The position numbers were made by a program, and so were the translations under genes. Positions 3,207-18,681 of a stretch of DNA of 29,373 nucleotides are shown here, piece after piece (position 1 is the stretch's first letter; each line of letters opens with the position of its first letter). The DNA is from an uncultured virus (IMG/VR IMGVR_UViG_3300022468_000816). Lineage: Duplodnaviria; Heunggongvirae; Uroviricota; Caudoviricetes. The notes beneath the pieces were generated by a model. The model was not told the DNA's origin, did not search any database, and was given only the letters and a program-made list of their open reading frames with translations. The stretch is from IMG/VR virus record IMGVR_UViG_3300022468_000816. One strand, written 5' to 3'.

Positions 3207-3212
3207 CCCGCC

Positions 3213-3228
3213 ATGGTAGGGTCACGAC
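3213..3228 (-). promoter_or_regulatory. Late-promoter-like motif, copy 1 (GTCGTGA-CCC-TACCAT), 6 nt before ATG 3206
   Basis: Matches the 7-copy consensus; no Shine-Dalgarno fits between motif and ATG. Confidence 0.75.
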
Positions 3229-3229
3229 A

Positions 3230-3559
3230 TCAAAGGCCGCCGGCGTCCGGATCCAGCAGGGTGAACGTGCCGCCGCCCACGTGGTCCTCGACCTCATTGC
3301 GGCCCATGTTGAACGCCGCGTTCTGCCGGTACTCCTCGGCAGCAGCCGCCAGGGCCTCCTGCAGGTCGGCGTGCGGGCGCATGCGCTCCACCACCGAGCG
3401 GTCAACGTGGTCGCCCAGCAGGCTCAGGTTGTCGCGGGTGTAGAACTTCTTGAGCACCAGCTTGACCAGGTACCAGTACGCGCCGAACAGGCGGTACCGG
3501 CGGGGGTCATCCTGGAGCAGCTGCAGCGTGCTGGCAGCGAAGGTCTTCGGGTCGATCAT
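3230..3559 (-). CDS. Hypothetical protein (109 aa), translationally coupled to the DarB-like gene
   Basis: ATGA overlap at 3556-3559, AAGGAGG upstream, natural composition. Confidence 0.8.
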   Translation of the reverse strand: MIDPKTFAASTLQLLQDDPRRYRLFGAYWYLVKLVLKKFYTRDNLSLLGDHVDRSVVERMRPHADLQEALAAAAEEYRQNAAFNMGRNEVEDHVGGGTFTLLDPDAGGL

Positions 3560-6500
3560 GCTGCCTCCTTGGTGGTGTCGTGCTGCTTGATGGTCGCGTA
3601 CAGGTCCGTAAGCGCGGAGCCTTGGGCGATGTTGCGCAGCGCGCCGCGCACGGTCTGATCCTCACCCTGCCAGCCGTTCAGGTGGAAGGCGTATTTGTCG
3701 TGCACGGGGTAGGTGTGGACACTTCCGCCAGCTCCCATTGCGCGCTTCGGCACGTGCTCATCGAGCGGGGTGTCCAGCACGCCGTCGCGCTGGGCGCGCT
3801 CCCATAGCGCCGTGGTCACATCCTTATCCCACGTCGGCTTGTTGACGCTGGCACCGTAGTCCGGCAGCTGAGCCGTCTGCAGCGCGGCGGATAGCGCCTC
3901 CTTGAAGGTGGGCGCGCTGCGCACGCGCTCCAGCTGCTCGGCATGGAAGCGCTTGCGCGTCTCGCGCACGAGCGGCGCTTCGGAGATGCCGCCCGCATCC
4001 TTGCCGCCCAGGTCCGCCAGCGCCGATGACCACGGGTTGCGCTGCTTCTGGTCGTAGCGCGCGCCCTCGTACTCGGCCTGGTTGCGCCACTCTGTGCGGG
4101 CGTTCTTCCGGGCCTGGTAGGTGGTCTTGCCGAACTTCTTGGTGCGCTCGGCCGCCATCCAGGCTTGGGCCACCTTCTCCTTGGCGTCGTCGGTGGGCAG
4201 CAGGTAGTCGTGGGTGTCGTGCAGCTTCACGTGGTCGTAGCTCTCGGCCATCTTGAGCTCGCCCGTGGCCTTGTCCACCATAGGGATGGTGCCGTATGGC
4301 ATTGAGAACTTGTAGGCCTTGGTGCCCTCCTTGATCTGGCGCTGGATCAGGTCGTGGTTCTTCTCCAGCACCGCCGACGGCATGCGCTTCACCTCGTCCC
4401 ACTTGGTCAGGCTGTTCAGGCTGGCCGATGCCTGAGCCTCCAGGGCAGCGCCCACCTCACTCGCCTCGGCGGCCGCGTCGAACTTGAACGGCTGCGCGTC
4501 GGCCAGCTTGTCCAGGGGCACCGTGACCGGGCGGCCGGTGGCCACCTCGGCATACCGGCGCATGGTGACCGTGCCGGCTTTCATGTTCACACCGGTGACC
4601 ACCATCTTGCCATCGGCGCCGAACTCCAGGCCCTGGTTTGCCGCCAGGGGCGTGCCGGTCTGGGGGTGGATCAGCACGTCGGTGGCGCTGTCGAGCGCCG
4701 CCTTCGCGGGCCAGTAGCGGTTGTTGAACAGACCGGTTTTGGTGGCCTCGATCTTCTGGCGCAGGCGCTCGCCGCTGGCCGTGGCCTTGTTCTTGAGCGC
4801 CTTGTAGCTGCGGGTCATCTCGGTGAAGCGCACGAATTCGGCCTGCGCCTTGGTGCGCTCGCCCGCCTCGTAGCGCCTGGTGGCCTCGGCCTTGTCCTCC
4901 TCGAACTTGGCCCGGGCCGCCTCGGGGTCGGCCGCCAGCATGATGCGCATGTCGTCGATCGAGAAGGAGCCCTCGCGCGCCAGGTTGTCGACGCGATCGC
5001 CGCCGTTCCACAGCAGGTCCTGCCAGTCCTTTTTGGCAGCCACCGCCTGGTACCGGTAGCCGTCGAAGCTCCCCTTCGACAGGTAGGTGTGGATTCGCAG
5101 GCTCTCGTTCATGTTGCCCTGGCGCAGGCCGCGGCCGTTGCGCTGCTGCAGCGTGGCCGGCTCCCACGGCACGTCCAGGTGGTGGATGTCCGTGGTGGTC
5201 TTCTGCATGTTCAGGCCTTCGGCCATGGTGGCATTGCCCACCACCACCTTGAGCTTGCCGGCGTTCAACGCCTCAGCGATGTTCTGGCGCTTCACCGACG
5301 AGGCCGCCACCTGCGCGTTGATGACGCCGATCTCGCTGCGCTTGAAGCCGGCGTCCACCAGGGCGGCCACGATCTTGTCGTGGCTGGCGATGTACTCGCT
5401 GAAAACGATCTGCCCGCCCTCCTTGGCGCCCTCCACGCACTGCTTGGCCAGCTCGGCATACTTGGGGCTGCTCGCGCCCGCGTGCGCGGCCGGATCCAGC
5501 AGCGACAGGTCGAGCGCCGCCTTGTTCATCTTGTCCATGATGGCGAAGATGTGGGCGTCGCCAGTGGCGTCCTTCTTGCCGGCGGATTCCTCGGCCAGCT
5601 CGCGCAGCTCGGCATAGACCGCCTGCTGGGCGGGCGTCATGTCCACCAGGTGCATGCGATCGTCGCGCGACGGCAGCTTGAGGCCCACCTGCTCGGCCGT
5701 GCGGCGGTCGATGTAGCGGGACATGATCTCGCGCAGCTCGTCGAGGTTCTTGAAGCCGGAGACCACCAGCGCATCCTCGATCGCGCCCTGCGTGCTGAGC
5801 ACCTTGTCGCCCTGGAACTCGCAGAACCGGTCCAGGAACTCCTCGCTGTTGCGGATCTTGATGCGCTCGAACGCCTCGGGGGCGATGTGCGACAGCATCG
5901 AGTAGATTTCCAGCGGGCTGTTTTTCGTGGGCGTGGCCGTCAGGCCGTGCACGTTCTTGCCGCCGTTGTTGTCGCGGATCCACCGGGTCTTGAGGTTGAA
6001 GTCGAGCGCCCGGTTGCTGAGGCCCTGGCCACCCAGGAACTTGGGCTGCTCGCCGAAGCGCGCCCGGGCGGAATACAGGTTCTTCTGGTGGTGCATCTCG
6101 TCGGCGATCAGCATGTCCACGCCCAGGTCGTTGAACCAGATGGCGTCGGTGCGGTCGCTGAACTCGCGCTGCGCGATGTGCTGCTCGTAGCGCTCCTTGA
6201 TGGCCTTGCGCCGCTTGTCGCCGGCATTGCCCAGGGACTCGCCGCGCTGCACCCAGAAATCCTGGCTGTAGTATTCCTCCTTCTTCACCGGGTCGAGGTC
6301 GATTTCCTCGAAGGCCGGCTCGCTGATCAGGATGAAGTCGTAGTCGTTCTGCGTGAGGTCGTGGTACTTGCGCTTGCGCTCGGTGGCGCTGTCATCCTTG
6401 CCGACCAGCTCGCCGTCTTTGCCCGCGGCGAAGTTCGCGCCGATGGTCAGCACGCGCGAGCCAGGGAACCACGTCTGTGACTCGGCATACCAGTTGGCCA

Positions 6501-9500
6501 GCACAGACTTCGGCACCACGATGATGGGCTTCTTGGCGCTGCCCTGCACCTTGGCCATGCGCGCCAGCAGCAGGCCGCCCAGGGTTTTGCCCAGGCCCAC
6601 GTCGTCGGCGATGATGCCCTTGCCGGTCGCCAGGCTGCGGCGCAGGCTGGACCAGCGCCAATCGCGCACCGTGCGGTCGGCCGCCAGCCCGGGCACGTCG
6701 ATCGGTTCGTTGGAATACTCGGGCGCCACGAAGCCGCGGAACGAGCGGTTGTAGAGGTCCTCAACAGCGTCGCGGTAGGTGCTGCCGCACAGCCACTCCT
6801 TGAACTCAGCGTTCAGGGCGTCGAGCTGGTCCTTCTCGTCCTTTTTGACACCGGTGCGGTTCAGGTACTTGTCCACCAGCTTCTGGTCGCTGCTGTACTG
6901 GTTGCCGCCGGCGATCGTGTAGACGCCATCGGCGAAGGTCACATCGACCGCGCCCTGCTTCTTGGTCCAGTCGTTGGCGTGGGGTCCCTCGAACTGCCGC
7001 CAGTTCAGGAAGGCCGCCAGGACGTGCGTGGGCACGAACGCCGAATTGATCAGCACCTCGACATCGTCCAGCGACTTCGCGTCGATCTTGGCCTCCAGGC
7101 GCTCGACCTGCAGGCGGCGCTTCTCGGCCATGTCGGGCTCGGCGCCGGACTCCAGCGCGGCGCGCGCGGCGTCCAGCTTCGGCCAGAGCTCGCCGGTCAG
7201 GTAGTTGTCCATCGTGGCCCACTGGCCAGCGCCCGCGTAGGCATAGCGAGGATCCGCCGCGAGCTGGTCCACCACCTCATCCAGCGGCTTGCCCAGGCGC
7301 TCGGCCAGCTCGGCGCTGGTGAATGTGCCGCCCTCGTGCTCCAGGGCCAGGATCTGCGCCGTGGCGTCGAAACCGCCCTCGGTTTTGCGCACCCGGCCGG
7401 TGACGGCGTCCGACAGCTCGCCCTTGCGGTTGACGGCGCCCACCAGGCGGAACAGGCGCTTGTCCACGCTGGCGGCCGTCATCAGGTCGGGGTTGTCGGC
7501 CGGCACGCCGTGCGCCTTCACGTAGGCGCGGATCTTGGCTTCGAGCGCCGGGCGGTCGACGGCAGCGGTGCCGTTCATGAGCGTGTCGATCTCGGTGGCC
7601 AGGGCCTGCGCCTCGCTGATCGCCGCCGTCTGCATGAACTCGTCGACGCGGTGCCAGCGCGCGGGGTCGCCCTGTAGCACGTAGGCGATGCCGTCCACGG
7701 TCTTGGTGTCGCCCACCTTGGCCATGTTGGCGTAGGGGCGGCGGAAGCCGGCGGACACCGCGCGGTCCTTGGCGGCCTCGTCGTCGCCGAGGGCATCCAG
7801 GACTTGGTGCATGGTCACAGCGGTGGCCGGGGCCGACTCGCCGTCCGGGCGGAAAGTCGCGATCGCGTCGGCCACGCCGTCCATGGAGCCCTCGACGGTG
7901 ATGTCGTTGCCCATGCCGGCCTTGGCGCGCCATCCCTCGGTCATCGTGCCAAGGACGTTGTCGGCGCCGCGGCCGGTGAAGTAGGCGCCCGACAGGAACT
8001 CATCGTCCCAGACGCCCAGCTTCTGCAGCGTGGCCTGATCGACCGTGCCCAGGGCGCCGGCGACATCGTCGGGCCGCTTGCGCAGGAAGATCACATCGGT
8101 GGTCACCTCGGTGTGGCTGTGCTCGAAGGCCGTGTTGGGCATGCGCTGCGCGCCCAGGAACTCGCCCTTGCGCAGCAGGTTTTCGCGCAGCGTGCGGTTG
8201 GTCTTGCTGTCCATGATGCCCGTGGGCACCACCAGCGCCACCAGGCCGCCGGGCTTGCACTTGTCGAGCGCGGTGTCGGTGAAATAGGCCTCAGCCGTGC
8301 TGATGTCCTTTTTGTCATCCTTCGCCAGGAAGCCGCGCGGGCCGTATGGCGGGTTGCCGATGACCACGTCGAACTGGCGGTCATCGGTGGTGGCGAAGCG
8401 CTCCAGCGACGCCGTGACGATCTCGTGCCGGTCGCCGTGCAGGGCGCTGGCCACCTGCGCGCTCACCGGATCCAGCTCGACGCCGGTCACCCGCACGCCC
8501 GCGGGCGCAGTGTGCAGGAACACGCCCGTTGCGCAGCTCGGCTCCAGGGCGGTGCCGTGCACGAAGCCCAGGGAGCGCAGCGCGGTCCACATCGCGCGCG
8601 CCACGCCCGGGTCGGTGTAGAACTCGTTCAGGCTGTCGCCGCAGCCGCCGTTGCCGCTGTACTGCCGGAATTGCGCGAGGTCGCCGTCGGTGTACGGGCC
8701 GCCCTCGGCCAGGCGCGCCACCACGGACGCGTTGATGTCGCGGCGCTTGCCCTTGGTGGTGCCGGCGGCCACGCCGAACGGGGCGGCGGGGTCGTGGGCC
8801 ACGGCCACTGCCGGGGCCACTGCCGGGGCTGGTGCTGGTGCGGGCTCTGGGGCCGGTGCCGGCGCCGGTGCCTTGCCGACGGTGACTTTCTTCACCCGGC
8901 CGGCCTTCACGTCGCGCGCGATCGAGGAGCCGGCGCTGTTGGCCCAGTAGTCGGCCATCTTGTCGCCGGTGCGCTGGATGTGGTTGCGGTCTGTTGGCGC
9001 GGCCGCGTCCAGGTGCTTCTCGCGAATGAACCAGCCGCCGTCCTTCTTGAACGTGTAGGGGTCGATCTCCTTGGCCTCAGCCTGCGTCAGATCGGTGCGC
9101 ACCACGCCGCGCAGGGTCTTTCCCTTGCCGGTGACGTGCTCGACGAGCTGCGGCGCTGGCGCGGTCTGCTCCGGGGTTGCGTCTTTCTGCTCCGGGGTAG
9201 CGGCGGTCTGCTCCGGGGTAGCTGGCGCCTCGGAGAACAGATCCGGCGTGCTCGGCTGGGCCGGCGCAGCGTGCGCACCGCGGCCCAGCATCTCGGCCAC
9301 GGCCTCGGGCGTGATCTTGCCCACCTCGGCCATCTTGGCGATCAGCTGCTGCTGCTGGCCCTCGGGCAGGCCTGCAAGGATCTTGGCCATGCCCGCCGGG
9401 CCGCCGTAGCGCGACAGGAAGATGTCCAGCTTCGAGCGCTTGGGCTTTGCCTCGGCCGCCGGCGGCGCTGCGTGGTGGTGCAGGCCGAACAGCGAATGCT

Positions 9501-9627
9501 GGTGCATCGCCACCTTCTGGATCCGCACGTGCGGCTTGACGACAGTGCCGTCCTTGCGCACGTGGGCCGCCACGTTGATGGGGGCGTCGAACAGGGCGAG
9601 TTGGGATTTGACGAATAGGATGAGCAT
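3556..9627 (-). CDS. DarB-like polyvalent protein: N6-adenine methyltransferase + SNF2 helicase (2023 aa)
   Basis: MTase motif I LEPSCATGVFL and motif IV VIGNPPYG; helicase motifs DDVGLGKT, IADEMHH, LTATP, AEGLNMQ, QQRNGRGLRQGN. Same architecture as P1 DarB. Confidence 0.92.
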   Translation of the reverse strand: MLILFVKSQLALFDAPINVAAHVRKDGTVVKPHVRIQKVAMHQHSLFGLHHHAAPPAAEAKPKRSKLDIFLSRYGGPAGMAKILAGLPEGQQQQLIAKMAEVGKITPEAVAEMLGRGAHAAPAQPSTPDLFSEAPATPEQTAATPEQKDATPEQTAPAPQLVEHVTGKGKTLRGVVRTDLTQAEAKEIDPYTFKKDGGWFIREKHLDAAAPTDRNHIQRTGDKMADYWANSAGSSIARDVKAGRVKKVTVGKAPAPAPAPEPAPAPAPAVAPAVAVAHDPAAPFGVAAGTTKGKRRDINASVVARLAEGGPYTDGDLAQFRQYSGNGGCGDSLNEFYTDPGVARAMWTALRSLGFVHGTALEPSCATGVFLHTAPAGVRVTGVELDPVSAQVASALHGDRHEIVTASLERFATTDDRQFDVVIGNPPYGPRGFLAKDDKKDISTAEAYFTDTALDKCKPGGLVALVVPTGIMDSKTNRTLRENLLRKGEFLGAQRMPNTAFEHSHTEVTTDVIFLRKRPDDVAGALGTVDQATLQKLGVWDDEFLSGAYFTGRGADNVLGTMTEGWRAKAGMGNDITVEGSMDGVADAIATFRPDGESAPATAVTMHQVLDALGDDEAAKDRAVSAGFRRPYANMAKVGDTKTVDGIAYVLQGDPARWHRVDEFMQTAAISEAQALATEIDTLMNGTAAVDRPALEAKIRAYVKAHGVPADNPDLMTAASVDKRLFRLVGAVNRKGELSDAVTGRVRKTEGGFDATAQILALEHEGGTFTSAELAERLGKPLDEVVDQLAADPRYAYAGAGQWATMDNYLTGELWPKLDAARAALESGAEPDMAEKRRLQVERLEAKIDAKSLDDVEVLINSAFVPTHVLAAFLNWRQFEGPHANDWTKKQGAVDVTFADGVYTIAGGNQYSSDQKLVDKYLNRTGVKKDEKDQLDALNAEFKEWLCGSTYRDAVEDLYNRSFRGFVAPEYSNEPIDVPGLAADRTVRDWRWSSLRRSLATGKGIIADDVGLGKTLGGLLLARMAKVQGSAKKPIIVVPKSVLANWYAESQTWFPGSRVLTIGANFAAGKDGELVGKDDSATERKRKYHDLTQNDYDFILISEPAFEEIDLDPVKKEEYYSQDFWVQRGESLGNAGDKRRKAIKERYEQHIAQREFSDRTDAIWFNDLGVDMLIADEMHHQKNLYSARARFGEQPKFLGGQGLSNRALDFNLKTRWIRDNNGGKNVHGLTATPTKNSPLEIYSMLSHIAPEAFERIKIRNSEEFLDRFCEFQGDKVLSTQGAIEDALVVSGFKNLDELREIMSRYIDRRTAEQVGLKLPSRDDRMHLVDMTPAQQAVYAELRELAEESAGKKDATGDAHIFAIMDKMNKAALDLSLLDPAAHAGASSPKYAELAKQCVEGAKEGGQIVFSEYIASHDKIVAALVDAGFKRSEIGVINAQVAASSVKRQNIAEALNAGKLKVVVGNATMAEGLNMQKTTTDIHHLDVPWEPATLQQRNGRGLRQGNMNESLRIHTYLSKGSFDGYRYQAVAAKKDWQDLLWNGGDRVDNLAREGSFSIDDMRIMLAADPEAARAKFEEDKAEATRRYEAGERTKAQAEFVRFTEMTRSYKALKNKATASGERLRQKIEATKTGLFNNRYWPAKAALDSATDVLIHPQTGTPLAANQGLEFGADGKMVVTGVNMKAGTVTMRRYAEVATGRPVTVPLDKLADAQPFKFDAAAEASEVGAALEAQASASLNSLTKWDEVKRMPSAVLEKNHDLIQRQIKEGTKAYKFSMPYGTIPMVDKATGELKMAESYDHVKLHDTHDYLLPTDDAKEKVAQAWMAAERTKKFGKTTYQARKNARTEWRNQAEYEGARYDQKQRNPWSSALADLGGKDAGGISEAPLVRETRKRFHAEQLERVRSAPTFKEALSAALQTAQLPDYGASVNKPTWDKDVTTALWERAQRDGVLDTPLDEHVPKRAMGAGGSVHTYPVHDKYAFHLNGWQGEDQTVRGALRNIAQGSALTDLYATIKQHDTTKEAA
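9166..9219. repeat. Three 21-bp-period repeats encoding TPEQ(TA/KD)A in a linker
   Basis: ctgctccggggt at 9166, 9187 and 9208. Confidence 0.85.
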
Positions 9628-9656: not shown

Positions 9657-9672
9657 AGTGTCGCCTCACGAC
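9657..9672 (-). promoter_or_regulatory. Late-promoter-like motif, copy 2 (GTCGTGA-GGC-GACACT) upstream of the DarB-like gene
   Basis: Consensus match; its TGA is the stop codon of the upstream gene; predicted leader about 23 nt. Confidence 0.65.
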
Positions 9673-11126
9673 TCTGGTCCGCGGAGAAAGATGGACGATT
9701 TGGTGATGACCGGGTTTCCGGGGTCGAAGTCGCCGTTGTTGCCGGTGGCGGATTTGATCTGCTCGGGGCGGAAGGCCACCAATTCGGTGATCGCACCGGA
9801 TTGGTCTTTAACAATCACCCCGTCGTACTTGCTGCGGTCAACATCCACGCGCCCCCACTGCCCAGCGTCCACTACGATGGGTCGCTGGATGCTCAGGTAA
9901 GCTGGGATGATGTTGCCGCCATCAGGGTCTGCGGCATACTGCCCGGCAGTGCCCCATTGCTTCCCGCCGTTGCCGTGCTTTGGCGTGAAATAGAAGCCGG
10001 CGCCATACAGCCCTTCGTCGGTCGCGCTGCCGATCCTCTCCGGGTCGAAGCGCTCGATGTCCGCCGCAGTACCGTGATACACGACCAGCGGCTTGCCATC
10101 GGCGTCCACCACCTTGCTGCCGTCGAACCAGCGCCGGAACTGTGGGGTGTCCACCGGGTGCGCCGGCGCCGCGGTCTGCTCGAACAGGTCCGGCGTGTGC
10201 GCCACGGCGTCCTTGCCCTGCAGCGGGCTGGGCGGCAGCGGTTTGCCGCTGCTGGGCCCGCCGAACAGGGAGATTTGCCCAGGCACTGGCACAGCGCGCG
10301 CATTCCGGCCCTGGTAGCCGGCCATGTTCACCATCTTGCCGTTGCGCAGGTATGGACCGACGTGCGCCTTGAAGAACACCACCATGGATTTCATGGCGAC
10401 TTCGACAGGGTTCTGCTCGCGCCACTCGGCCGCCAGGCGCTCGAACGCCGGGTAGTCGCTCTCCAGCATGTGCTCGATGTCGCGATAGCCCAGGTCCTGC
10501 GCCTTGGAATGGAGCCACTTTTCCTGCCGCTGCAGGTCCTCCTCCAGGCTCTGGCGCTTGTCCTCGTGGGGCGGAACAAATGTGCCGTCCTTTTTCGTGT
10601 AGCCATTGACGTGAGTTTTCAGCAGCAGTGCCTTGATCATGGCCGGCGCTTTACGGGTGGCGCGCACCTTGGCGATGAACTCGGCCACCGGCATGGCCGT
10701 GATTCCGCCGAAGAATCGCGGATCATCGTAGTGGCCCAGGTAGGCGTCCCGGGCCTCGTCTATGCTAGCGAAGTTGATCATGCACTTCTGCTCGTCGGCG
10801 ACGTCCCACTGCTTTCGCTTCATCTGCTGCACCACGTACACCTCGGGGGCGTCCGGGTAGCTGCCGATGAACACGTCCACGGGGTCGCCGTCCATGCCCA
10901 GCGTGCCCAGGATCTCGCCGTAGGCGTAGCGGAACACCGTGCGCCAGGGTTTGCCGGTCTCGTCCACACCCTCGCGCACCGTGCCCTCGGGGTGCTCAAT
11001 CGCCACGGTCAGCCCGTGCCAGTCCTGGCGCAGCTTGGGATAGTCGCCGCTGGCCGCCTGCTCGGGCGTGGGGTCGCCGCCGATCATAGTGCGGGTGGCG
11101 GGGTGCGACTTGAGGAAGACAATCAT
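9666..11126 (-). CDS. Polyvalent protein: N-terminal inorganic pyrophosphatase-like domain + C-terminal ADP-ribosyltransferase (ART-PolyVal-like) domain (486 aa)
   Basis: Pyrophosphatase-like motifs GLTVAIEHPEG...YGEILGTLGMDGDPVDVFIG...DEQK; ART motifs WFDGSKVVDADGKPLVVYHGT...GAGFYFT...YDGVIV...ELVAFRPEQIKSATGNNGDFD. Start moved to ATG 11126 (ATGA overlap with the upstream stop). Confidence 0.85.
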   Translation of the reverse strand: MIVFLKSHPATRTMIGGDPTPEQAASGDYPKLRQDWHGLTVAIEHPEGTVREGVDETGKPWRTVFRYAYGEILGTLGMDGDPVDVFIGSYPDAPEVYVVQQMKRKQWDVADEQKCMINFASIDEARDAYLGHYDDPRFFGGITAMPVAEFIAKVRATRKAPAMIKALLLKTHVNGYTKKDGTFVPPHEDKRQSLEEDLQRQEKWLHSKAQDLGYRDIEHMLESDYPAFERLAAEWREQNPVEVAMKSMVVFFKAHVGPYLRNGKMVNMAGYQGRNARAVPVPGQISLFGGPSSGKPLPPSPLQGKDAVAHTPDLFEQTAAPAHPVDTPQFRRWFDGSKVVDADGKPLVVYHGTAADIERFDPERIGSATDEGLYGAGFYFTPKHGNGGKQWGTAGQYAADPDGGNIIPAYLSIQRPIVVDAGQWGRVDVDRSKYDGVIVKDQSGAITELVAFRPEQIKSATGNNGDFDPGNPVITKSSIFLRGPES

Positions 11127-11818
11127 GATGCAAGCACGGTTGGATTGAAGTATTCGCCGTGAGACCAATGTTTCTGCTTGGCCAGCATCATCGACGACTC
11201 GTAGGCACCAGCGTCACCAACAAGGCAGTACATGAGCAATTCGGCGCCGGGATGTTTCTGGCGAATTCGTGTAAGTCGATAGCGCATGGCGGTTGTGGCA
11301 CTACCGAACTTCACAAAATCACCGACTCTCACCATGTAGAAGATACCTTCTTTGCCAGCAGTTTTCCCTTCTTGGGCCTTGCGAACGCAGTAAGTGAAAA
11401 GAGCTGAGCGGCGCTTCATGTGCTCGCGCAGCTTCTGCTTTGTTTCCTCGGATCGCGGCTTCCCAACCTGGCGAGCGATGCGCTCGGTAGAATGTCGCAC
11501 CCCTCTGGTTGGGCTTGGCTTCCCTTCACGCGATGCGCTCAACCGCTCTCTTGTTTGGATTGAATGCTTGCGGCCAAAAAACGGGTTTGCGTCACCAACA
11601 AGAAGACGGCCGCGTGCGCGATTGTCCTCAAGTCCACAACAGGCCATCCTGCCACCCTGAAATATGTTCCCTGGCAGAACTTCCTTTTGGAATGCGTGAC
11701 GCTCGCAGCGCACTAACGTGCGAACGCCCCAGCCGCGATATTCTCCGATGAGTGAATATCCAGCAGCGGCAATTCGCTCCGCTGCTGCGCTTTGTGAAAG
11801 ACGGATGCTTTTGCTCAT
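11123..11818 (-). CDS. Putative free-standing homing endonuclease: NUMOD3 repeats + C-terminal GIY-YIG-like (T5orf172-type) domain (231 aa)
   Basis: NUMOD3-like NPFFGRKHS..TRERLS, GVRHSTE, GKPRSEETKQKL; C-terminal GIFYMVRVGDFVKFG...RL...E...GEYF; visibly lower GC than flanks; ATGA overlaps at both ends. Confidence 0.72.
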   Translation of the reverse strand: MSKSIRLSQSAAAERIAAAGYSLIGEYRGWGVRTLVRCERHAFQKEVLPGNIFQGGRMACCGLEDNRARGRLLVGDANPFFGRKHSIQTRERLSASREGKPSPTRGVRHSTERIARQVGKPRSEETKQKLREHMKRRSALFTYCVRKAQEGKTAGKEGIFYMVRVGDFVKFGSATTAMRYRLTRIRQKHPGAELLMYCLVGDAGAYESSMMLAKQKHWSHGEYFNPTVLAS

Positions 11819-12954
11819 TTTTGTAGTGTAACCCGCATCCATTCAGCGAAGTCTGGATCGTCACCAACACGTTCCGTTATCGTCGGAACCCATCGGCCTC
11901 TGCAGTGAGGATGGACCAAACCAGCAGGTATCACCCACATCTCCTCGGGTTCGCGCTCCTTGAACACGGTACCGATGCGCTTGCGCGGGGACGCGGACCG
12001 GCCGACGTTCGTTTTCCCTGGCCAGATTTGCGTGTCCCAGTTCTTCTCCGGCGCGTCGGCCGCAACCACGGTGACCACCTTGCCGTCGATCTTGCGGCAG
12101 AAGGCGCACGCGTTGCGGTACTGCTCCACCCGTTTGACCTTGGTGCCGGGCTGCAGGCTGGAGACGTAGCCGTGGGTCTGGGCCTCGCCTGCCTCGGTCA
12201 CGGCGATGCGCCGCCAGTCGCGGTTGAGCGTGCCGAACTGGTCCAGGAGCTTGGTCTCCAGCGAGGAGCCCGGGCCCGGCGTGCCCAGCTCGCGCGCCTG
12301 CACGTGCTCAGCGATCACGGTGCGCATCCGGTGGCGGGCGTCGTTCGCCAGGTTGCGCACGTTCTCCGCGCAGCGCACGGCCGCGAATTCCATGGTGGCG
12401 CGCTGGGCCCGGGATCCGCCGAACGCGGCGATGGCCTCGGCCACCGTGCTGGGCATGGACGCCAGCAGCACGTCGGCCTGCTCTGCCGTGACCCCGTCCA
12501 TGTTGGCCTGCACGCGCCCCATGAGGCTGGAGCGCGTGGCCATCCACTCGGCCTCGGTGCGCATGTCGTCGGCCGGCAGGTAGCGCTGCGCCAGATAGTC
12601 CACCGCCAGCATGTGATCATCGAGGGTCCACTCGGCCGCCGGCAGGTGTTCGAGGTAGATTTTGACCAGCGACAGCTCGGGCTGCGTCCAGCGCTCCATG
12701 AGGCCTGCCGGGCGGGCGATGCGCTCGCCTGGCGTGTGCCGGTTGCCGTTGGACCACGCCAGGAGCTCGGAGCGGAAGGCTTCAAGGCGATCGAGGCCGC
12801 GCTGGGTGAACAGCTCGACCAAGCGCGCCAGCAGCGGCGAGTCCATGGGCTGCCAGATGTCGCCGTCGTGGTCGTGCGTCGCCTTGCACAGGAATTCGAG
12901 CGCCGCGTTCGTGCGCGGCTCGTCGAGGTCGATCAGGTCAATGAAAAGGCCCAT
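11815..12954 (-). CDS. Phage head morphogenesis / minor head protein (SPP1 gp7 / Mu F-like)
   Basis: RDWRRIAVTE, ACAFC and HPHCRGRW motifs; head-module context. Confidence 0.85.
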   Translation of the reverse strand: MGLFIDLIDLDEPRTNAALEFLCKATHDHDGDIWQPMDSPLLARLVELFTQRGLDRLEAFRSELLAWSNGNRHTPGERIARPAGLMERWTQPELSLVKIYLEHLPAAEWTLDDHMLAVDYLAQRYLPADDMRTEAEWMATRSSLMGRVQANMDGVTAEQADVLLASMPSTVAEAIAAFGGSRAQRATMEFAAVRCAENVRNLANDARHRMRTVIAEHVQARELGTPGPGSSLETKLLDQFGTLNRDWRRIAVTEAGEAQTHGYVSSLQPGTKVKRVEQYRNACAFCRKIDGKVVTVVAADAPEKNWDTQIWPGKTNVGRSASPRKRIGTVFKEREPEEMWVIPAGLVHPHCRGRWVPTITERVGDDPDFAEWMRVTLQK

Positions 12955-12960
12955 GGCGCG

Positions 12961-12976
12961 ATGATGCGGTCACGAC
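12961..12976 (-). promoter_or_regulatory. Late-promoter-like motif, copy 3 (GTCGTGA-CCG-CATCAT), 6 nt before ATG 12954
   Basis: Consensus match with identical spacing to the ATG. Confidence 0.75.
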
Positions 12977-12978
12977 AG

Positions 12979-13174
12979 ATGGCCGGGGCAGTTTCCCACC
13001 CCGGCCGTCGCCGCCTCTCGCGCGGAATCGGATCAGCCCTAGCGTCAACAGCCGAAGCCGCTGGAGAAACGCCGACCGCCCCACAGTAAACGATCAACGC
13101 CGCCATGCTGATCTGCGGCCTTTATTTCCCGAATGAGCCGCATACGGTCAGCACTCGCAGTCACCCTCGCGGGC
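12979..13174 (-). ncRNA. Candidate ~195-nt structured late ncRNA
   Basis: Begins right after motif copy 4; long interrupted hairpin 13106-13153 and 10-bp hairpin 12979-13008; no credible ORF. Confidence 0.45.
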
Positions 13175-13180
13175 ACCCTG

Positions 13181-13196
13181 AGTGTGGCGTCACGAC
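13181..13196 (-). promoter_or_regulatory. Late-promoter-like motif, copy 4 (GTCGTGA-CGC-CACACT)
   Basis: Consensus match directly after the terminator T-tract; no start codon at the predicted +1. Confidence 0.65.
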
Positions 13197-13222
13197 AAAA
13201 AAAGACCCGCACGAGGCGGGTC
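13197..13222 (-). terminator. Intrinsic terminator closing the tRNA/tmRNA transcript
   Basis: GACCCGC-ctcgt-GCGGGTC followed by T7 on the minus strand. Confidence 0.85.
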
Positions 13223-13458
13223 AATGGTTGCAGCAGTGGCAGCGGCAGCAATAGGGGCGGGGCGATGGCGCAGGCGGATCCTTTCACGGCTCGGCCGGGC
13301 TACCCTGCGCAGCGCCTCGGCATCATGACTTCATCCCGTGCTTCGGCTTGCGCCACACGGTTAGCCCCTCTCGGGGGGGTGTATTCGTGCCAGCGTTTCG
13401 GCTGGCCGAGCCTGTTCTGTTCCTACGTTCTCAGGCTACGCGCCGTCCGATCTCTCGA

Positions 13459-13844
13459 TCAGACCGCCAGGGCTGCATCACCGGTCACGGCATCGCGGGA
13501 CGATGCGGAGGCCTTGGCGATGGCAGCAAAAGCGGCCACAGACGAAGAAGCAAAAGCGTTGTTGGCAGTTACTTTGGTTGCTTGGTTTTGCCTTGCGGCC
13601 GGGCTCCGCTTGCCCGAGTCGTCGGTTTCCATTTCCTCGCGCTGTCGAAACCTGGTCAGCCCCACCCGATGGCACTAAAGGTCGATCATATTTCAGGGCT
13701 CCCGCCCGCTAACGATCAATGCCACCTGGTGGAGCTGGGCGGAATCGAACCGCCGTCCAGCACGCACCCACTTCAACTTCCAGGCAGCGTTTCGGCTGCC
13801 ATACGACCATCACACTGCGGGCCGACGAAAGCCCATCGTGTTCC
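13459..13844 (-). ncRNA. ssrA: Circularly permuted (two-piece) tmRNA gene. Acceptor piece ~13844-13727 ends in CCA; 63-nt intervening hairpin 13726-13664; coding piece starts at 13663 (3' end uncertain, beyond 13459)
   Basis: The 3'-type end GACGGCGGTTCGATTCCGCCCAGCTCCACCA precedes the 5'-type end GGGGCTGACCAGGTTTCGAC. The 7-bp acceptor stem has the G3:U alanine determinant; helix 2a is CAGCGCG/CGTGCTG; the resume context is TAACT-GCC-AAC; the tag frame is 13566-13459. Confidence 0.9.
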
Positions 13845-13920
13845 TGGTTGCAGCAGCAGGACTTGAACCTGCGACCTCCGGGTTATGAGCCCGCCGAGCT
13901 ACCAACTGCTCCATGCTGCA
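13845..13920 (-). tRNA. tRNA-Met(CAT), initiator type (fMet), CCA encoded
   Basis: 76-nt cloverleaf; anticodon loop CTCATAA with three consecutive G-C pairs; A11:U24; U1:A72 instead of the C1xA72 mismatch. Confidence 0.93.
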
Positions 13921-14012
13921 CCTTCAAGACGACCATCTGAGCCCTGGCTTGGCGCCATTACGCTTCCGTTGCCCGCCGGAGTCGAACCGACGCAGACTGG
14001 TCGACTTGAAGG
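13921..14012 (-). ncRNA. Candidate structured RNA with a T-arm, abutting the tRNA 5' end
   Basis: 15-bp terminal stem with 1 mismatch (CCTTCAAGTCGACCA/TGGTCGTCTTGAAGG) enclosing GTCGG-TTCGACT-CCGGC. Confidence 0.5.
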
Positions 14013-14081
14013 CCCTGCTCGCGCAGGATCTCCAAGGCCGGGTACGTCTCCGGCGCGGGCTTTCACCGCTCGTGTAGCCTC

Positions 14082-14165
14082 CTCACGCTCTGCGAAGGTC
14101 GAATCGCGCAGCTCCTAAGCTGTGAACTTTCGTTCCCGCTGGCCTCCAGCGGCTCTCGGCGTGAG
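14082..14165 (-). ncRNA. Candidate five-way-junction structured RNA element
   Basis: Closing stem CTCACGC/GCGTGAG with four back-to-back internal hairpins, one with a GAAA tetraloop. Confidence 0.45.
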
Positions 14166-14270
14166 CAGGTTTTCAGCCACTCCCTGTTTGTGATGCAGAC
14201 ATTCACCCGGCTTGATTCCCAGTACGGTCTGCAAGCGCTGTCGGAATGCTTGAATTCTAATCCAAAAATA

Positions 14271-14867
14271 TCAGAATTTGTCCAGCCCCGTGAGATAAGT
14301 TGTAGAAAAAAGACTATCCAGCACGGGATGACGTGCGCCCATGGCCTGAACCACCTGTCGGGCGTCGTCGAAATACTTGCGCTTGCGATCCGTGGGCCAG
14401 TCAGGCGGGCTCGCCACCAGGTCGCGCAGGTTGGCCGTCTTGTCGGCCACCTTCACCGCCGCGGCGCGCGCGCTCATCTTGGCCGCGTGGGCAGCCTGCC
14501 ACGCCGTCTTGCCGCCCGGGCCGAAGTCTGCCGGGTTGGTCAGCTCGGCCACCACGTCGGCCACATCGTGCCCGAACTCGGCCACCAGGTTGGCGTGCGA
14601 GACGCCGGTGTCCTCCATGGTGTCATGCAGCAGCGCGGCCTGGAGCACGACGGGATCCGTGATGCCGGCCTCGTCGTGCAGGATGCGCGCCACGGCGCGC
14701 GGATGCTCGATGTAGGGGACCTTGGGCGCGCCGGGCTTGCCCTTGCGGTACTGCCCGGCGTGGGCCTTCTCGGCGTATGCGTCGGCGCGCCGGACGTGGG
14801 GGGCGACGAAGACGCCGCTGCGCATGTGGCCACCGACGTGGACCACGGACTTGAAAAGCAGGATCAC
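14271..14867 (-). CDS. HD-domain small alarmone hydrolase (Mesh1/SpoT-hydrolase-like) with an N-terminal cargo-type leader
   Basis: AHAGQYRK...PYIEHP...AALLHDTMEDT...FG..VA..V.ELT...VKVADKTANLRD; GTGA overlap with the upstream gene. Confidence 0.92.
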   Translation of the reverse strand: MILLFKSVVHVGGHMRSGVFVAPHVRRADAYAEKAHAGQYRKGKPGAPKVPYIEHPRAVARILHDEAGITDPVVLQAALLHDTMEDTGVSHANLVAEFGHDVADVVAELTNPADFGPGGKTAWQAAHAAKMSARAAAVKVADKTANLRDLVASPPDWPTDRKRKYFDDARQVVQAMGARHPVLDSLFSTTYLTGLDKF

Positions 14868-15085
14868 GCAGGCTCCTTGGCGGGCTCCTGCTGCTCGGGG
14901 GTCGCGTCCTGCTCAGCGCCGCCCATCAGGGCCTTGGCTGCGGCCTCGTCGATCTCATCGCCCCAGTCGACATCCTTGGGCACGCTGCCCTTGTAGGGGA
15001 CGAATTCCTTGCCGTTCCACACTTCCTTGGGCCAGGCCCGGGCGGGACCTCTGAACAATGCGCCCTCGTTTTCGATGTAGATCAT
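14864..15085 (-). CDS. Small hypothetical protein (73 aa) between synthetase and hydrolase
   Basis: ATGA/GTGA overlaps on both sides; natural composition. Confidence 0.8.
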   Translation of the reverse strand: MIYIENEGALFRGPARAWPKEVWNGKEFVPYKGSVPKDVDWGDEIDEAAAKALMGGAEQDATPEQQEPAKEPA

Positions 15086-16539
15086 TTGGCAACCCTTAGA
15101 AACAACACCTGCATTTTATTCCCTTGATCGGATTTGATCAACGGCTTGTCCGCGCTCTGTTGCGCGCCAGCACCGGTAGCCTTCGACCAGGCCTCGTCGT
15201 AGACCTGCTTCTGCCGCTTCACGGCGTCGTAGTAGGCGGTGTGGTCGGCATCGGACCAGAGATCCGACGGCGACGGCTCGCCGTACTTGCCCTGCAGCGT
15301 GCGCGTGATCTCGTAGTCCTTGTGGCCCTTTTCCTTGGCCAGTGTCATGGCCTTGGTGTGCACCTGCAGCTCGGCCACCATGCCGTTGGGCAGCTTCACG
15401 AACGCCATCAGGTCGCGGTAGCCCTCGGGCGTGGGCTTCTCGAAGCGGTTCTTCGGCTTCATGGCGATCTCGATGCCGGCGGCCTTCATGTGCTCCAGCG
15501 CCTGCTTCACGTGTCCCATGGTGGGCACGCTGATCGTCGCGCGCACGATGTCGCGCAGCTGGGACCAGTCGCCGCCGTAGTCGGCCTCGACCTTCTCCTT
15601 GGCGCGCTTCTCGCCCTTGAGCGGCGCCACGAACAGGAACCCCTCGTCGTTCTCCCACTGCTCGGGCGTGATCGCCTCGGGCTTCATGCCCGACTTGAGG
15701 CCCATGGCCTGCTGCACCTTGCCCAGCATGCCCTTGAACTGCTCCAGGCCTTCGGTGCCTTTCTGCACCAGCTCATCCCAGCTCGCGGCCGGCTGATTGA
15801 CCTTGGCGGGCAGCGCCTCGATGGCCGCAGGGTCGAACAGCGCGCTGGCGTCGCCGCCCGCGGGCTTCGCGGCCGCGCCGCCTGCCGCCGCTGGATCCTC
15901 GTGGGGCGACTTGTCGGGCGCGCCCTCCCCCTCCCAGTGGTGGGTGATCTTCTCGTGGTGCACGCGGTGCTCGCCGCCCGCCTGGTCGCGCACGGTCACG
16001 CCGTGCTGGCCGGCAGCCGTCACCTCGCCGTGGCCGCGGTGCTCGCCGTTCTCGAACCCGACGTGCTGGCCCTTCTGGGCGGGCGGGCCGCCGGCGCCGA
16101 TGCTGACCCAGCGCGTGGTTTGCACGCCGTTCTTGTCGGTGACTTTCTTCTGCTGCAGCCCGGGACCGGGGGGCGCGCCGGCTTTCAAGAACAGCACGGG
16201 CCGCTGCCCGAACGCTTTCGCGACCATAGGATCTTCCTTCGATTCATTGGGCATGGCGACATACCGGCGGCGGCCCTGCGCGTCCTGGACGAGCATGCCG
16301 TCCTCGCCGTGGTCGATGACGTTGTAGCGCTGGGGCGCTCGCTTCTTGTGGCCCAGCACGTGCTCCCACTTCACGGGGTGGTGCTGGCCGTCGATCTCGA
16401 CGGTGACGCCGTGGCGGCCGTGCGCGCGCACGATGCCGGTGCAGGGCTGGCCCTTGTGGTGCACGTACAGGTGGTCATCCACCTCCACGTCGGCGCGCGG
16501 CTGCGGCTCGGGCTGCTTTTTCGGTTTGAAGGTGGTCAT
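15082..16539 (-). CDS. RelA/SpoT synthetase-domain (small alarmone synthetase-like) polyvalent protein (485 aa)
   Basis: PLKGEKRAKEK...LRDIVRAT...GYRDL...AELQVHT...GHKDYE. True start is ATG 16539 (ATGA overlap with the portal stop); the track's 5' extension is out-of-frame portal sequence. Confidence 0.88.
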   Translation of the reverse strand: MTTFKPKKQPEPQPRADVEVDDHLYVHHKGQPCTGIVRAHGRHGVTVEIDGQHHPVKWEHVLGHKKRAPQRYNVIDHGEDGMLVQDAQGRRRYVAMPNESKEDPMVAKAFGQRPVLFLKAGAPPGPGLQQKKVTDKNGVQTTRWVSIGAGGPPAQKGQHVGFENGEHRGHGEVTAAGQHGVTVRDQAGGEHRVHHEKITHHWEGEGAPDKSPHEDPAAAGGAAAKPAGGDASALFDPAAIEALPAKVNQPAASWDELVQKGTEGLEQFKGMLGKVQQAMGLKSGMKPEAITPEQWENDEGFLFVAPLKGEKRAKEKVEADYGGDWSQLRDIVRATISVPTMGHVKQALEHMKAAGIEIAMKPKNRFEKPTPEGYRDLMAFVKLPNGMVAELQVHTKAMTLAKEKGHKDYEITRTLQGKYGEPSPSDLWSDADHTAYYDAVKRQKQVYDEAWSKATGAGAQQSADKPLIKSDQGNKMQVLFLRVAK

Positions 16540-18296
16540 GCTTCGATGCGGAACACGGGAAGTCCGAAGGCCTTGGCCATGTCCTGGGCGGGCGGCTGCT
16601 GCTGGCCCTGCTCGGGCTGCTGCTCCTCGTCGTCGCCATCGCCGCCACCGGGCTGGCCGAAGTCCTGCGCCTGGCCGTCGTCGCCCTGGCCGAAGTCGCC
16701 ATCGTCCTGGCCGCCCTGCCCGGGTGCGTCGCCCGGCTGGCCGTAGTCCTCCTGCTGGGGCATGGCCTCCTGCTGCCAGGCGCCGACCAGCGACGGGTTC
16801 AGCGGCGCGTCGCCCCACTTCCCGTCGGCTGCCTCGACGCCATCCTCGGCGCGGATCTCGTTGACGGTGCGCGTCATCTTCTTGCGCTCCCACACGTCCT
16901 TGGGGTCTTCCTCGTCGAGCCCGGTGAACTGGAACTCGTATTTGTCGGAAAACTCGCCGATGACGTACTCGCTGATCGTGCCCTCCAGGTAGGCCAGCAG
17001 CGGCCGCAGGCCTTTGTCCTTGGAGAAGGACAGCTTCTCCTCGGTGTCGCTGCCGCTCAGCGAGCTGGTGCCCGTGGTGAAGCTCTCGAAGTTGATCTCG
17101 TCGGGCGCGATGCCGTAGATGGCGCAGATGATCGACGCCAAGAACGTCATCCACTTCGCGAACATCACCTCGTTGACCTGGGCGCCGAACTCGGTGAAGT
17201 CGGCCTTGGACTCCTGGTCCTTGGACACCATCACCGGCAGGGCCCACGCGTTGTTGGCGCCCTTCACCATGCCGTTCCAGTAGCGCTTGAAGGCGTTGAT
17301 GTCCTCGTCGCTGTAATTGCCGTACAGGTTCAGCACGCCCTTGGGGATGGCGTTGCTGTCGAAGAACTTGGTGTTGTAGGTAAACGCGTTCAGGAACCCG
17401 GTCACCACGCGGATCAGCAGCTCGGTCTCGGCCAAGCCGTATCCGCCGGCGATCACATCGGTGCGCGGATTGCGCGGCACGTAGATCAGATCATCGTAGG
17501 TGTAGGCGCTGCGGATCTGCCCTTGGATGACCTGCAGGGCGAAAATCTCATCCTCGCCCTGGTAGCCCTCCTCGCTGCACAGCCGGATGGTGGCGCCGTC
17601 GACGGCGTACATGCCGTCCAGGCCCAGCGACTTGTCGCGCTTCCACTCGGTCTCAATCGCCATGCTGTCCATGGTCAGGCTGTCGCGCACCAGCTTGCTC
17701 ATGAAGTTGGGGAAGTTGTCCCGCTTGAGCCGCATGCGCTGCCGGGGCTTGGTCTCCCAGCCCGAATTCATGATGAAGGTTTCCAGCAGCTTGATCGCCT
17801 GCTTTTCGCTGTCGTCGATGTTCTCGACGGTCTCCTTGCTGGCGATCTTGAAGCCCGGGCCCTTGCCGCCCTTCTGCGGCCGGCAGAAGCGGGCCACCTG
17901 GCGCTGGCGCGTCATGATGACCGCATTGAGCACCGGCGTCTGCTCGACCATCGCGCGCATGGCGTCGAAGGAGAAGGAGCCTGGGCGCTCGAACCAGTCG
18001 CCGTTGACGTTGATCTGCAGGTCGTCGATCCACACCGACTGCATGCCCTTGGACTTGAGGTCCTTCGCTGCCATCGACGGGAACGGGATGACCTTGTTGC
18101 CGCGCATGGCCTTCTGCATGGCCTGGTCTTCGAGGTCGCGGTTGATGTAGTCGATGATGGGCTGGATGTTCGTGGCCGGGATCAGGTCCGACAGCGCGCG
18201 CGGCATCGACGATTTTTGCAGTTCCGCCATGGCGTCCTGCCGCTCGTCGGCGGGGGCGCGCGGGTCAAAGGCTACAGAGCGGGCAGCATCGGTCAT
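16536..18296 (-). CDS. Phage portal protein (586 aa)
   Basis: YVPRNPRTD..GYGL, NTKFFDSNAIPKGVL, ICAIYGIAPDEI, GLRPLL, TVNEIRA; Q/G/D-rich tail with D(Y/F)GQ repeats. Confidence 0.88.
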   Translation of the reverse strand: MTDAARSVAFDPRAPADERQDAMAELQKSSMPRALSDLIPATNIQPIIDYINRDLEDQAMQKAMRGNKVIPFPSMAAKDLKSKGMQSVWIDDLQINVNGDWFERPGSFSFDAMRAMVEQTPVLNAVIMTRQRQVARFCRPQKGGKGPGFKIASKETVENIDDSEKQAIKLLETFIMNSGWETKPRQRMRLKRDNFPNFMSKLVRDSLTMDSMAIETEWKRDKSLGLDGMYAVDGATIRLCSEEGYQGEDEIFALQVIQGQIRSAYTYDDLIYVPRNPRTDVIAGGYGLAETELLIRVVTGFLNAFTYNTKFFDSNAIPKGVLNLYGNYSDEDINAFKRYWNGMVKGANNAWALPVMVSKDQESKADFTEFGAQVNEVMFAKWMTFLASIICAIYGIAPDEINFESFTTGTSSLSGSDTEEKLSFSKDKGLRPLLAYLEGTISEYVIGEFSDKYEFQFTGLDEEDPKDVWERKKMTRTVNEIRAEDGVEAADGKWGDAPLNPSLVGAWQQEAMPQQEDYGQPGDAPGQGGQDDGDFGQGDDGQAQDFGQPGGGDGDDEEQQPEQGQQQPPAQDMAKAFGLPVFRIEA

Positions 18297-18302
18297 GCTG
18301 GT

Positions 18303-18318
18303 AGCGTAGCGTCACGAC
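18303..18318 (-). promoter_or_regulatory. Late-promoter-like motif, copy 5 (GTCGTGA-CGC-TACGCT), 6 nt before portal ATG 18296
   Basis: Consensus match with identical spacing to the ATG. Confidence 0.75.
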
Positions 18319-18335
18319 GACACCGGCTCGGACGC

Positions 18336-18364
18336 TTGCGCATTTTTGAGTATTTGCTGATAAT
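18336..18364 (+). promoter_or_regulatory. Possible sigma70-type promoter for the plus-strand block
   Basis: TTGCGC-N17-GATAAT in the AT-rich divergent intergenic region. Confidence 0.4.
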
Positions 18365-18390
18365 TGATCAAATTACTTCTGGAGAAAACC

Positions 18391-18681
18391 TTGAATGCCT
18401 ATGAGTTTTTGCTGAGCTTCGCACGCGAGCACTGGTTTCTGTCCTGGTGCGCGTTGTGGCTGGTGTGGGCGCCTATCCTGCTTTCCCGCTGGGTGCTGGT
18501 TTTCACGCGCAGCATCATCATCCGCACATACCGCACCGTCATGGTCGCCACGCGCGGCTGGCCGCCTGCGCACCTCGACGCCGACGGCGACTGGCGGCAG
18601 CTGCCGAAGGTGGCGGCAAAGACCGAGACCGCCACCGTGGGCGACAAGAGCCACACCACCACCCACGCCCGACAGATGTAG
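18391..18681 (+). CDS. Small predicted membrane protein
   Basis: GGAG 6 nt before TTG 18391; Trp-rich hydrophobic segment; RGWPPAHLDADGD. Confidence 0.7.
   Translation: MNAYEFLLSFAREHWFLSWCALWLVWAPILLSRWVLVFTRSIIIRTYRTVMVATRGWPPAHLDADGDWRQLPKVAAKTETATVGDKSHTTTHARQM

Follow-up and report, generated by a model that had tools for sequence, protein, structure and literature searches.

Among described systems, the one closest to the locus reported here is apk2-iapK(BcTis1)-aph1, which is known from prophages of Bacteroides caccae, Streptococcus pneumoniae, Mannheimia and Pasteurella (PMC10083569; PMC12226406). We analyzed a 29,373-nucleotide stretch of DNA from an uncultured virus of the Caudoviricetes (IMG/VR record IMGVR_UViG_3300022468_000816; the whole stretch is referred to as the window), in which a portal gene is followed by genes for a 485-amino acid (aa) protein with an alarmone synthetase domain, a 73-aa protein and an HD-family hydrolase. 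This cassette resembles apk2-iapK-aph1 in the order of synthetase, small inhibitor and HD hydrolase, in its position in the head module of a temperate phage, in the optional presence of the hydrolase and in the Tas1-type synthetase domain. Unlike apk2-iapK-aph1, it contains no MuF fusion; instead, the synthetase is joined to a carrier of Tudor/KOW repeats with xK[SA] sites, and the hydrolase is MESH1-like and usually tagged. Further differences are a Dx[LNM] sequence at Syn3, frequent in-frame fusions of toxin and inhibitor, and an internal promoter. Our analysis suggests that a known toxin system occurs here in an undescribed variant for delivery by phage heads. With moderate confidence, we read the locus as that of a polymorphic phage-head toxin that resembles apk2-iapK-aph1 in how it works and differs from it in its carrier.

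Other described systems overlap with the locus in part. The Tas1 (Apk1)–Tis1 pair of Pseudomonas aeruginosa (6OX6) matches it in the fold of the enzyme and, weakly, of the inhibitor, but here there is no PAAR or type VI secretion context and the surroundings are those of a phage head. With MuF polymorphic toxins, as portrayed in PMC5576092, PMC3482391 and PMC11699363, it shares a portal-adjacent carrier, short forms, swappable C-terminal toxins, small immunity genes and orphans; it differs in its all-beta Tudor/KOW carrier, its zeta-kinase payload and its occurrence in proteobacterial myoviruses. Phage polyvalent proteins likewise bear RelA/SpoT, InPase, ART and SNF2-methylase domains as predicted head cargo that is cut into units, but the available text of PMC5512222 describes no inhibitor gene, xK[SA] processing code or comparable carrier. 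MESH1/SAHMex hydrolases share their signature with the HD protein, which differs by an N-terminal cargo tag. The literature searched gave no account of this carrier, of its exchange of payload for zeta, of fusions separated by xK[SA] sites or of a promoter embedded in the toxin gene, although the supplements of PMC5512222 and PMC5576092 may list members.

The synthetase, an exchangeable payload of its carrier

The window is contained in a phage of about 91 kb, the 485-aa protein sitting on a 91,373-base contig. On its minus strand, terminase and portal genes precede the three cassette genes and an RNA island; next come genes for a MuF-like protein, for an InPase-ART protein and for helicase-methylases of the DarB type (coordinates in Table 1). 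Bordetella phage PHB04, a myovirus carrying an integrase, is the only cultured phage with the entire 485-aa protein (52% identity, four-gene order kept), and three of four complete relatives also have integrase genes. We regard the window as part of a PHB04-like myovirus that is probably temperate. A preliminary description of the window had noted that portal, synthetase, small open reading frame (ORF) and HD gene are chained by 4-nt overlaps, and this was confirmed at all three junctions (ATGA, ATGA and GTGA).

The N-terminus of the 485-aa protein models as Tudor/KOW barrels. A search for MuF in this protein gave no match in Pfam, PHROGs or NCBIfam, a scan that lay outside the MuF3 and MuF4 profiles of PMC5576092. 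For the C-terminal domain, Tas1 was the best solved relative by sequence (E 7e-5 with the single sequence, 4e-10 and 2e-19 with profiles), RelA (1.5e-4) and SaEAS (1.7e-4) scoring weaker. Tas1, which is about 20–24% identical, was also the best Foldseek match, and a published table of Tas1 homologues includes the PHB04 orthologue (PMC10083569). In Apk enzymes, R-x-T at Syn2 and x-H at Syn4 replace the AVR and IR of RSH proteins (PMC12226406). Correspondingly, Syn2 reads RxT or RxS in 120 of 142 parsed relatives (RAT in the window) and Syn4 is mostly xH or xN (VH in the window). Syn3 is DLM in the window and DxL, DxN or DxM in 52, 45 and 29 of the 142, which is neither the GxN of Apk2 nor the SxH of RSH proteins. 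Judged from its sequence, the domain is very probably an intact Tas1-clade synthetase. Apk2 enzymes make (p)ppApp only. The main product of the window domain is probably (p)ppApp; (p)ppGpp, or both alarmones, would be a less likely outcome, and tRNA is an improbable target.

A set of related loci was also assembled. Four scans yielded L002–L088, PHB04 was added and dereplication at 95% identity left 69 rows; after exclusion of L027 (truncated by a contig end), L075 (portal fusion) and L087 and L088 (unrelated synthetases), 65 loci remained. In 32 of them the carrier bears a synthetase and in 20 it has no payload; in the other 13 its payload is a zeta-toxin domain, which matched PF06414 at E 1e-22 in the four loci scanned. 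Morganella phage Mecenats66 is an example of a payload-free carrier behind the portal. That one carrier can bear either the synthetase or a zeta-toxin domain marks the synthetase as a toxin payload. The gene that follows switches with it. The 73-aa family lies directly after 31 of the 32 synthetase genes; in L060 the synthetase is followed by a divergent small ORF, and in L026 the 73-aa domain is in frame. The family occurs at none of the 20 short forms and at one zeta locus of 13 (L031, an orphan behind the zeta partner). A different gene of 50–77 aa follows all 13 zeta genes and none of the 32 synthetases. As each small-partner profile had been made from the group that it detects, independence holds for the cross-counts only.

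A tree was built from the portals of 44 among 54 loci, the others lacking a portal stretch of 350 residues. On it, the zeta label changes six times, five of them forced by well-supported branches, and the synthetase label also six times, four of them forced; the labels are clustered as well. In three database proteins (P0340, P0346 and P0349) both small partners are joined in one chain. The loci present features by which polymorphic toxins are recognized, namely a conserved N-terminal carrier with exchangeable C-terminal toxins, an immunity gene that switches with the toxin, and orphan immunity. The zeta payloads occur at L028–L038, L062, L063 and L071 (e.g. L031:6197-8207), and their small partner, which has an ERPDLYD motif, would seem to be a zeta antitoxin not described before.

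With 498 clusters at 50% identity (E <=1e-30), the uncharacterized synthetase clade is a large one. Among 45 of its long proteins that were scanned, 11 were fused to portal, and fusions to MuF, InPase, Acb1 and ART-PolyVal occur as well. In unrelated phages the synthetase sits on the portal C-terminus (L075:5979-8950; P0143, P0144, P0149, P0150, P0152, P0164, P0175, P0188, P0200, P0223, P0247 and P0253), and in L075 the inhibitor gene is convergent, on the strand opposite to the portal-synthetase fusion. P0153 and P0157 are polyproteins of carrier, synthetase, inhibitor and anti-CBASS Acb1 (and InPase) with xK[SA] sites between them. L039:3585-5441 and L046:7155-8963 have an added domain between carrier and synthetase that looks ParB-like by eye and has no Pfam match.

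Predicted antidotes and their promoter

The preliminary description had named the 73-aa protein as a possible inhibitor, and several lines of evidence support this. In addition to its co-occurrence with the synthetase, the 73-aa domain is fused in frame behind the synthetase in 31 of 150 distant relatives, and in 28 of the 31 fusions the linker contains [LMFV]xK[SA] (shuffled linkers: mean 2.7, maximum 9). The top fold match of the 73-aa protein is Tis1 (PDB 6OX6; sequence family PF24154), a weak match, and atlas leads to a Tis1-type inhibitor were weak too. We found no YXXY motif in the protein, the mark of pZFD antitoxins. From linkage, fusion and these fold and atlas leads, the 73-aa protein is, with high probability, the cognate Tis1/IapK-type inhibitor of the synthetase. 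Proteins of the Tis1/IapK type bind their synthetase and occlude its acceptor site. Inhibitor homologues were also seen on bacterial contigs of 213 kb (P0337; Caldimonas) and 3.8 Mb (P0340), where they may be prophage copies or orphan immunity genes.

The HD protein matches MESH1, which gave its best PDB matches, at E 5e-27, and Aph1 (7SMG) only at E 0.007. In the alignment, Arg41 of the HD protein falls on the RK of MESH1 and Rel, and each of the 21 HD rows has Arg there. The corresponding residue of Aph1 is its specificity Asp (D24), and (p)ppGpp hydrolases carry Arg instead. The HD gene was also considered as Aph1 itself; this assignment was rejected, with Arg rather than Asp at the specificity position and MESH1 far closer. 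The protein keeps the HD motif and the K, Q, S, W and Y of the SAHMex/MESH1 signature, while D98-D99 and L102 are altered in the window copy. Where there is room downstream, 22 of 30 synthetase loci have an HD gene, whereas it is absent from all 21 zeta or short loci that offer 900 bases or more. This confinement to synthetase loci matches the pattern of an optional second immunity described for Aph1, and we consider it likely that the HD enzyme is a second antidote. In PHB04, a calcineurin-like phosphatase gene lies immediately 3' of the HD gene (L001:22269-22961).

Seventeen of the 22 HD proteins are tagged, and a side role of the tagged enzyme against host alarmones or toxSAS products may exist. 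The tags would also suit a co-delivered kit, in which all three proteins are injected to give a brief, self-limiting alarmone pulse, or to strip host alarmones or toxSAS products, in the service of phage take-over or the lysis-lysogeny choice rather than poisoning. Such a kit would fit the presence of the inhibitor within the same polyprotein in some relatives, the fusion of the clade to Acb1 and InPase, the hydrolysis of both alarmones by MESH1 (PMC10083569) and the restriction of T7 by alarmone signalling (bioRxiv 2026.01.27.700999). However, the payload swaps for a zeta kinase with its own partner, the HD gene is absent wherever the synthetase is absent, 8 of 30 synthetase loci lack it, 5 of the 22 HD proteins carry no tag, and InPase and the tRNA island are independent of the synthetase. 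We thus consider co-delivery for tuning unlikely. Given the exchange with zeta and the restriction of HD to synthetase loci, the stringent-response reset kit that had been proposed beforehand is not supported either.

The cassette had also been placed under a single late motif. A motif of the form TCGTGAC-N1-3-YAnnnT does precede the portal gene, with four further minus-strand occurrences in the window, but a sigma-70 match in the 3' end of the synthetase gene precedes the small ORF. The heptamer alone was borderline against shuffles (7 observed, mean 3.7, 7 reached in 6 of 100 shuffles); in PHB04 it lies 14–15 nt upstream of portal, MuF-like, protease, helicase and tail genes. The sigma-70 match is the sole one within 12900-18400. 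A match at this internal position recurs in 14 of 31 synthetase genes and 5 of 13 zeta genes, while none of 462 background windows has one. The -35 box encodes the leucine of the C-terminal LxKS, whose codon is TTG in 31 of 31 genes compared with 104 of 1,188 other leucines; the LxKS site may be kept for the sake of the promoter. With this promoter inside the toxin 3' end, the antidotes could be made without the toxin. Upstream of the toxin gene we found the late motif only, so a lysogen would produce antidote and not toxin. An AT-rich stretch with TAGAAT at the HD stop (14270-14310, minus strand) is a possible RNA-island promoter, under the scanner threshold.

xK[SA] sites and predicted head loading

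The 7,079 head-module residues of PHB04 contain 28 [LMF]xK[SA] sites (4.0 per 1000), compared with 0.9 per 1000 in its tail genes and 0.7 in its other genes. An N-terminal tag of a hydrophobic run followed by K[SA] marks 4 of its 16 head genes and 1 of 85 genes outside head and tail, and none of its 23 tail genes. In this phage and four complete relatives, xK[SA] is found once within the first 37 residues of the major capsid protein, the protease (phrog_1028) has three to five sites, and the gene between protease and capsid, presumed from its position to encode the scaffold, has six or seven. This distribution is the pattern expected of a maturation-protease site. Capsids of the A511 type are reportedly cleaved after lysine. 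In distant relatives, xK[SA] precedes the hairpin in 49 of 50 linkers; it also occurs inside the synthetase domain, in 120 of 1,084 windows.

The synthetase, the hydrolase and a pyrophosphatase had been said to share one tag. A profile of the HD tag run against 470 window ORFs matched HD, the InPase-ART protein (twice) and a DarB-like protein, and missed the synthetase, whose hairpin differs from the HD type and which has only the hydrophobic-run-K[SA] prefix in common with it. The predicted head-cargo character of both synthetase and HD protein was supported. Capsid targeting would be conferred by the tag, and packaging and processing of the carrier-toxin protein in the head appear likely.

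These data also bear on the idea of a non-delivered prophage toxin-antitoxin or abortive defense module that resides in a head operon with its tags as passengers. Known toxSAS modules defend against phage (PMC11782079), relatives of the window phage are temperate, and the antidotes have a promoter of their own. Against this stand the late motif as the only one upstream of the toxin, which would leave a lysogen with antidote alone, the conservation of the carrier next to the portal even when payload-free, the relatives fused to portal and MuF, and the site before the hairpin. Such a module is therefore improbable.

For the favored polymorphic toxin, we infer synthetase activity, its product, inhibitor binding, packaging and cleavage, and would arrange them as follows. 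During lytic growth the observed late motif would drive synthesis of portal and carrier-synthetase protein. The linked 73-aa protein would bind and block the synthetase and the HD enzyme would clear leaked product, while the host-type internal promoter would supply both antidotes without toxin, protecting lysogens and fresh infections that retain the phage DNA. Carrier and tag would direct the protein to the inside of the prohead; there, cuts by the head protease at xK/[SA] would release the enzyme domain. This domain would enter the next cell with the DNA and pyrophosphorylate nucleotides, most likely ATP or ADP to give (p)ppApp, and cells without antidote would be slowed or killed. Tentatively, the head protease might even be an arming switch: the toxin would be loaded in blocked form, by an inhibitor fused behind xK[SA] or supplied from the promoter in the codons of the same site, then cut free and injected, with antidote coming from host polymerase if the DNA is kept.

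Neighboring features and significance

The tRNA/tmRNA island reported to follow the cassette is real and begins 350 bp past the HD stop; in PHB04 it lies 6–7 kb upstream on the opposite strand. By its stem features (Table 1) we take the tRNA-Met(CAU) to be initiator-type. Permuted two-piece tmRNAs were also found at L001:11000-11371, L011 and L013, with tag peptides that vary by phage. Non-coding stretches of the island (13921-14270, 13200-13527 and 12990-13180, minus strand) match no Rfam family; one has a T-loop-like end near 13960-13990, and another lies behind a late motif at 13195 with no clear gene.

An initiator-type tRNA and a tmRNA beside the cassette, and the frequency of tRNA-Met at the locus, would suit a translation toxin that pyrophosphorylates tRNA CCA ends while phage tRNA-fMet and tmRNA compensate. 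In published cases, however, antitoxins of the pZFD/YXXY kind block tRNA-targeting toxSAS (FaRel2, PhRel, PhRel2 and CapRel), whereas enzymes that make (pp)pApp are blocked by Tis1-like antitoxins (PMC11782079), which makes the tRNA pyrophosphorylation considered earlier unlikely and such a toxin highly improbable here. A scan of 57 loci placed tRNA-Met behind zeta and payload-free carriers too and found no tRNA at many synthetase loci; tmRNA counts are lower bounds, as ARAGORN misses the window tmRNA. Among loci with 6 kb downstream, InPase is within reach at 12 of 13 that bear the synthetase, at all 11 that bear zeta and at 2 of 7 short ones; it is predicted to be general head cargo, independent of the synthetase. 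The suggested translation-control system with tmRNA, initiator tRNA and pyrophosphatase is thus not borne out, InPase and tRNA island both being independent of the synthetase.

Table 1. Features of the cassette and its surroundings in the window
Feature	Coordinates	Strand	Evidence and remarks
Late-promoter motif TCGTGAC...TACGCT	18297..18317	-	6 nt 5' of portal ATG, leaderless-type spacing
Portal protein, 586 aa	16536..18296	-	PF04860 E 9e-21; phrog_12 E 1.5e-43; xK[SA] at residues 26, 60, 573
Carrier-toxin gene, 485 aa	15082..16539	-	PF04607 E 1.4e-5, 25.8 bits (27-bit cut-off narrowly missed)
Carrier: Tudor/KOW-like barrel and short beta module, residues 17-97	16249..16491	-	stands alone in payload-free relatives
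xKA site, hydrophobic-run-KA tag and beta-hairpin, residues 106-146	16102..16224	-	site in carrier-hairpin linkers of distant relatives (49/50)
Second Tudor/KOW-like barrel, residues 152-204	15928..16086	-	
Tas1/Apk-type alarmone synthetase domain, about residues 234-455	15175..15840	-	K308, K316, D330, R333, E390, Q392 invariant
Sigma-70-type promoter TTGATC-17-TAAAAT	15141-15113	-	in synthetase 3' end, overlaps C-terminal LIKS codons, 27 nt 5' of 73-aa ORF
Predicted cognate inhibitor (Tis1/IapK-like), 73 aa, untagged	14864..15085	-	no family match
MESH1-type HD alarmone hydrolase, 198 aa	14271..14867	-	HD_4 E 8e-14; N-terminal tag and hairpin, residues 1-27
tRNA-Met(CAU)	13845..13920	-	neighbor, outside cassette; three G-C anticodon-stem pairs, A11-U24, U1-A72
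Permuted two-piece tmRNA, betaproteobacterial type	13528..13778	-	RF04321 92.6 bits; neighbor, outside cassette
MuF-like minor head gene, separate, no toxin extension	11815..12954	-	phrog_581 E 0.0015 (weak); PHB04 orthologue PF06152 E 0.014
InPase and ART-PolyVal polyvalent protein, HD-type tag	9666..11126	-	InPase PF18823 E 2e-37; starts 3.1 kb downstream

Elsewhere in the window, a NUMOD3 homing-endonuclease-like gene with low third-position GC (0.54) lies between the MuF-like and InPase genes (11123-11842). Two big tagged SNF2 helicase proteins, one of them DarB-like with an adenine methylase, are encoded at 1-3227 and 3556-9627 on the minus strand; the first has an FLKA tag followed by a third hairpin type. 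In PHB04 an RtcB RNA ligase gene is located upstream of portal (L001:15239-16432).

The role and delivery of phage-head toxins of the MuF/Apk2 kind are open questions, and according to PMC12226406 their physiological role is still to be established. The locus offers a second, independent carrier, a cultured phage in PHB04, named candidate cut sites, and payload-free and zeta-bearing forms as natural controls. Together with its other features, the promoter that separates antidote from toxin makes packaging, arming and the effect on target cells directly testable. If the head protease does act as an arming switch, cells that destroy phage DNA and non-lysogenic competitors would be poisoned, and xK[SA] plus hairpin would serve, on a polymorphic carrier that has no relation to MuF, as the general signal by which enzymes are loaded into these heads.
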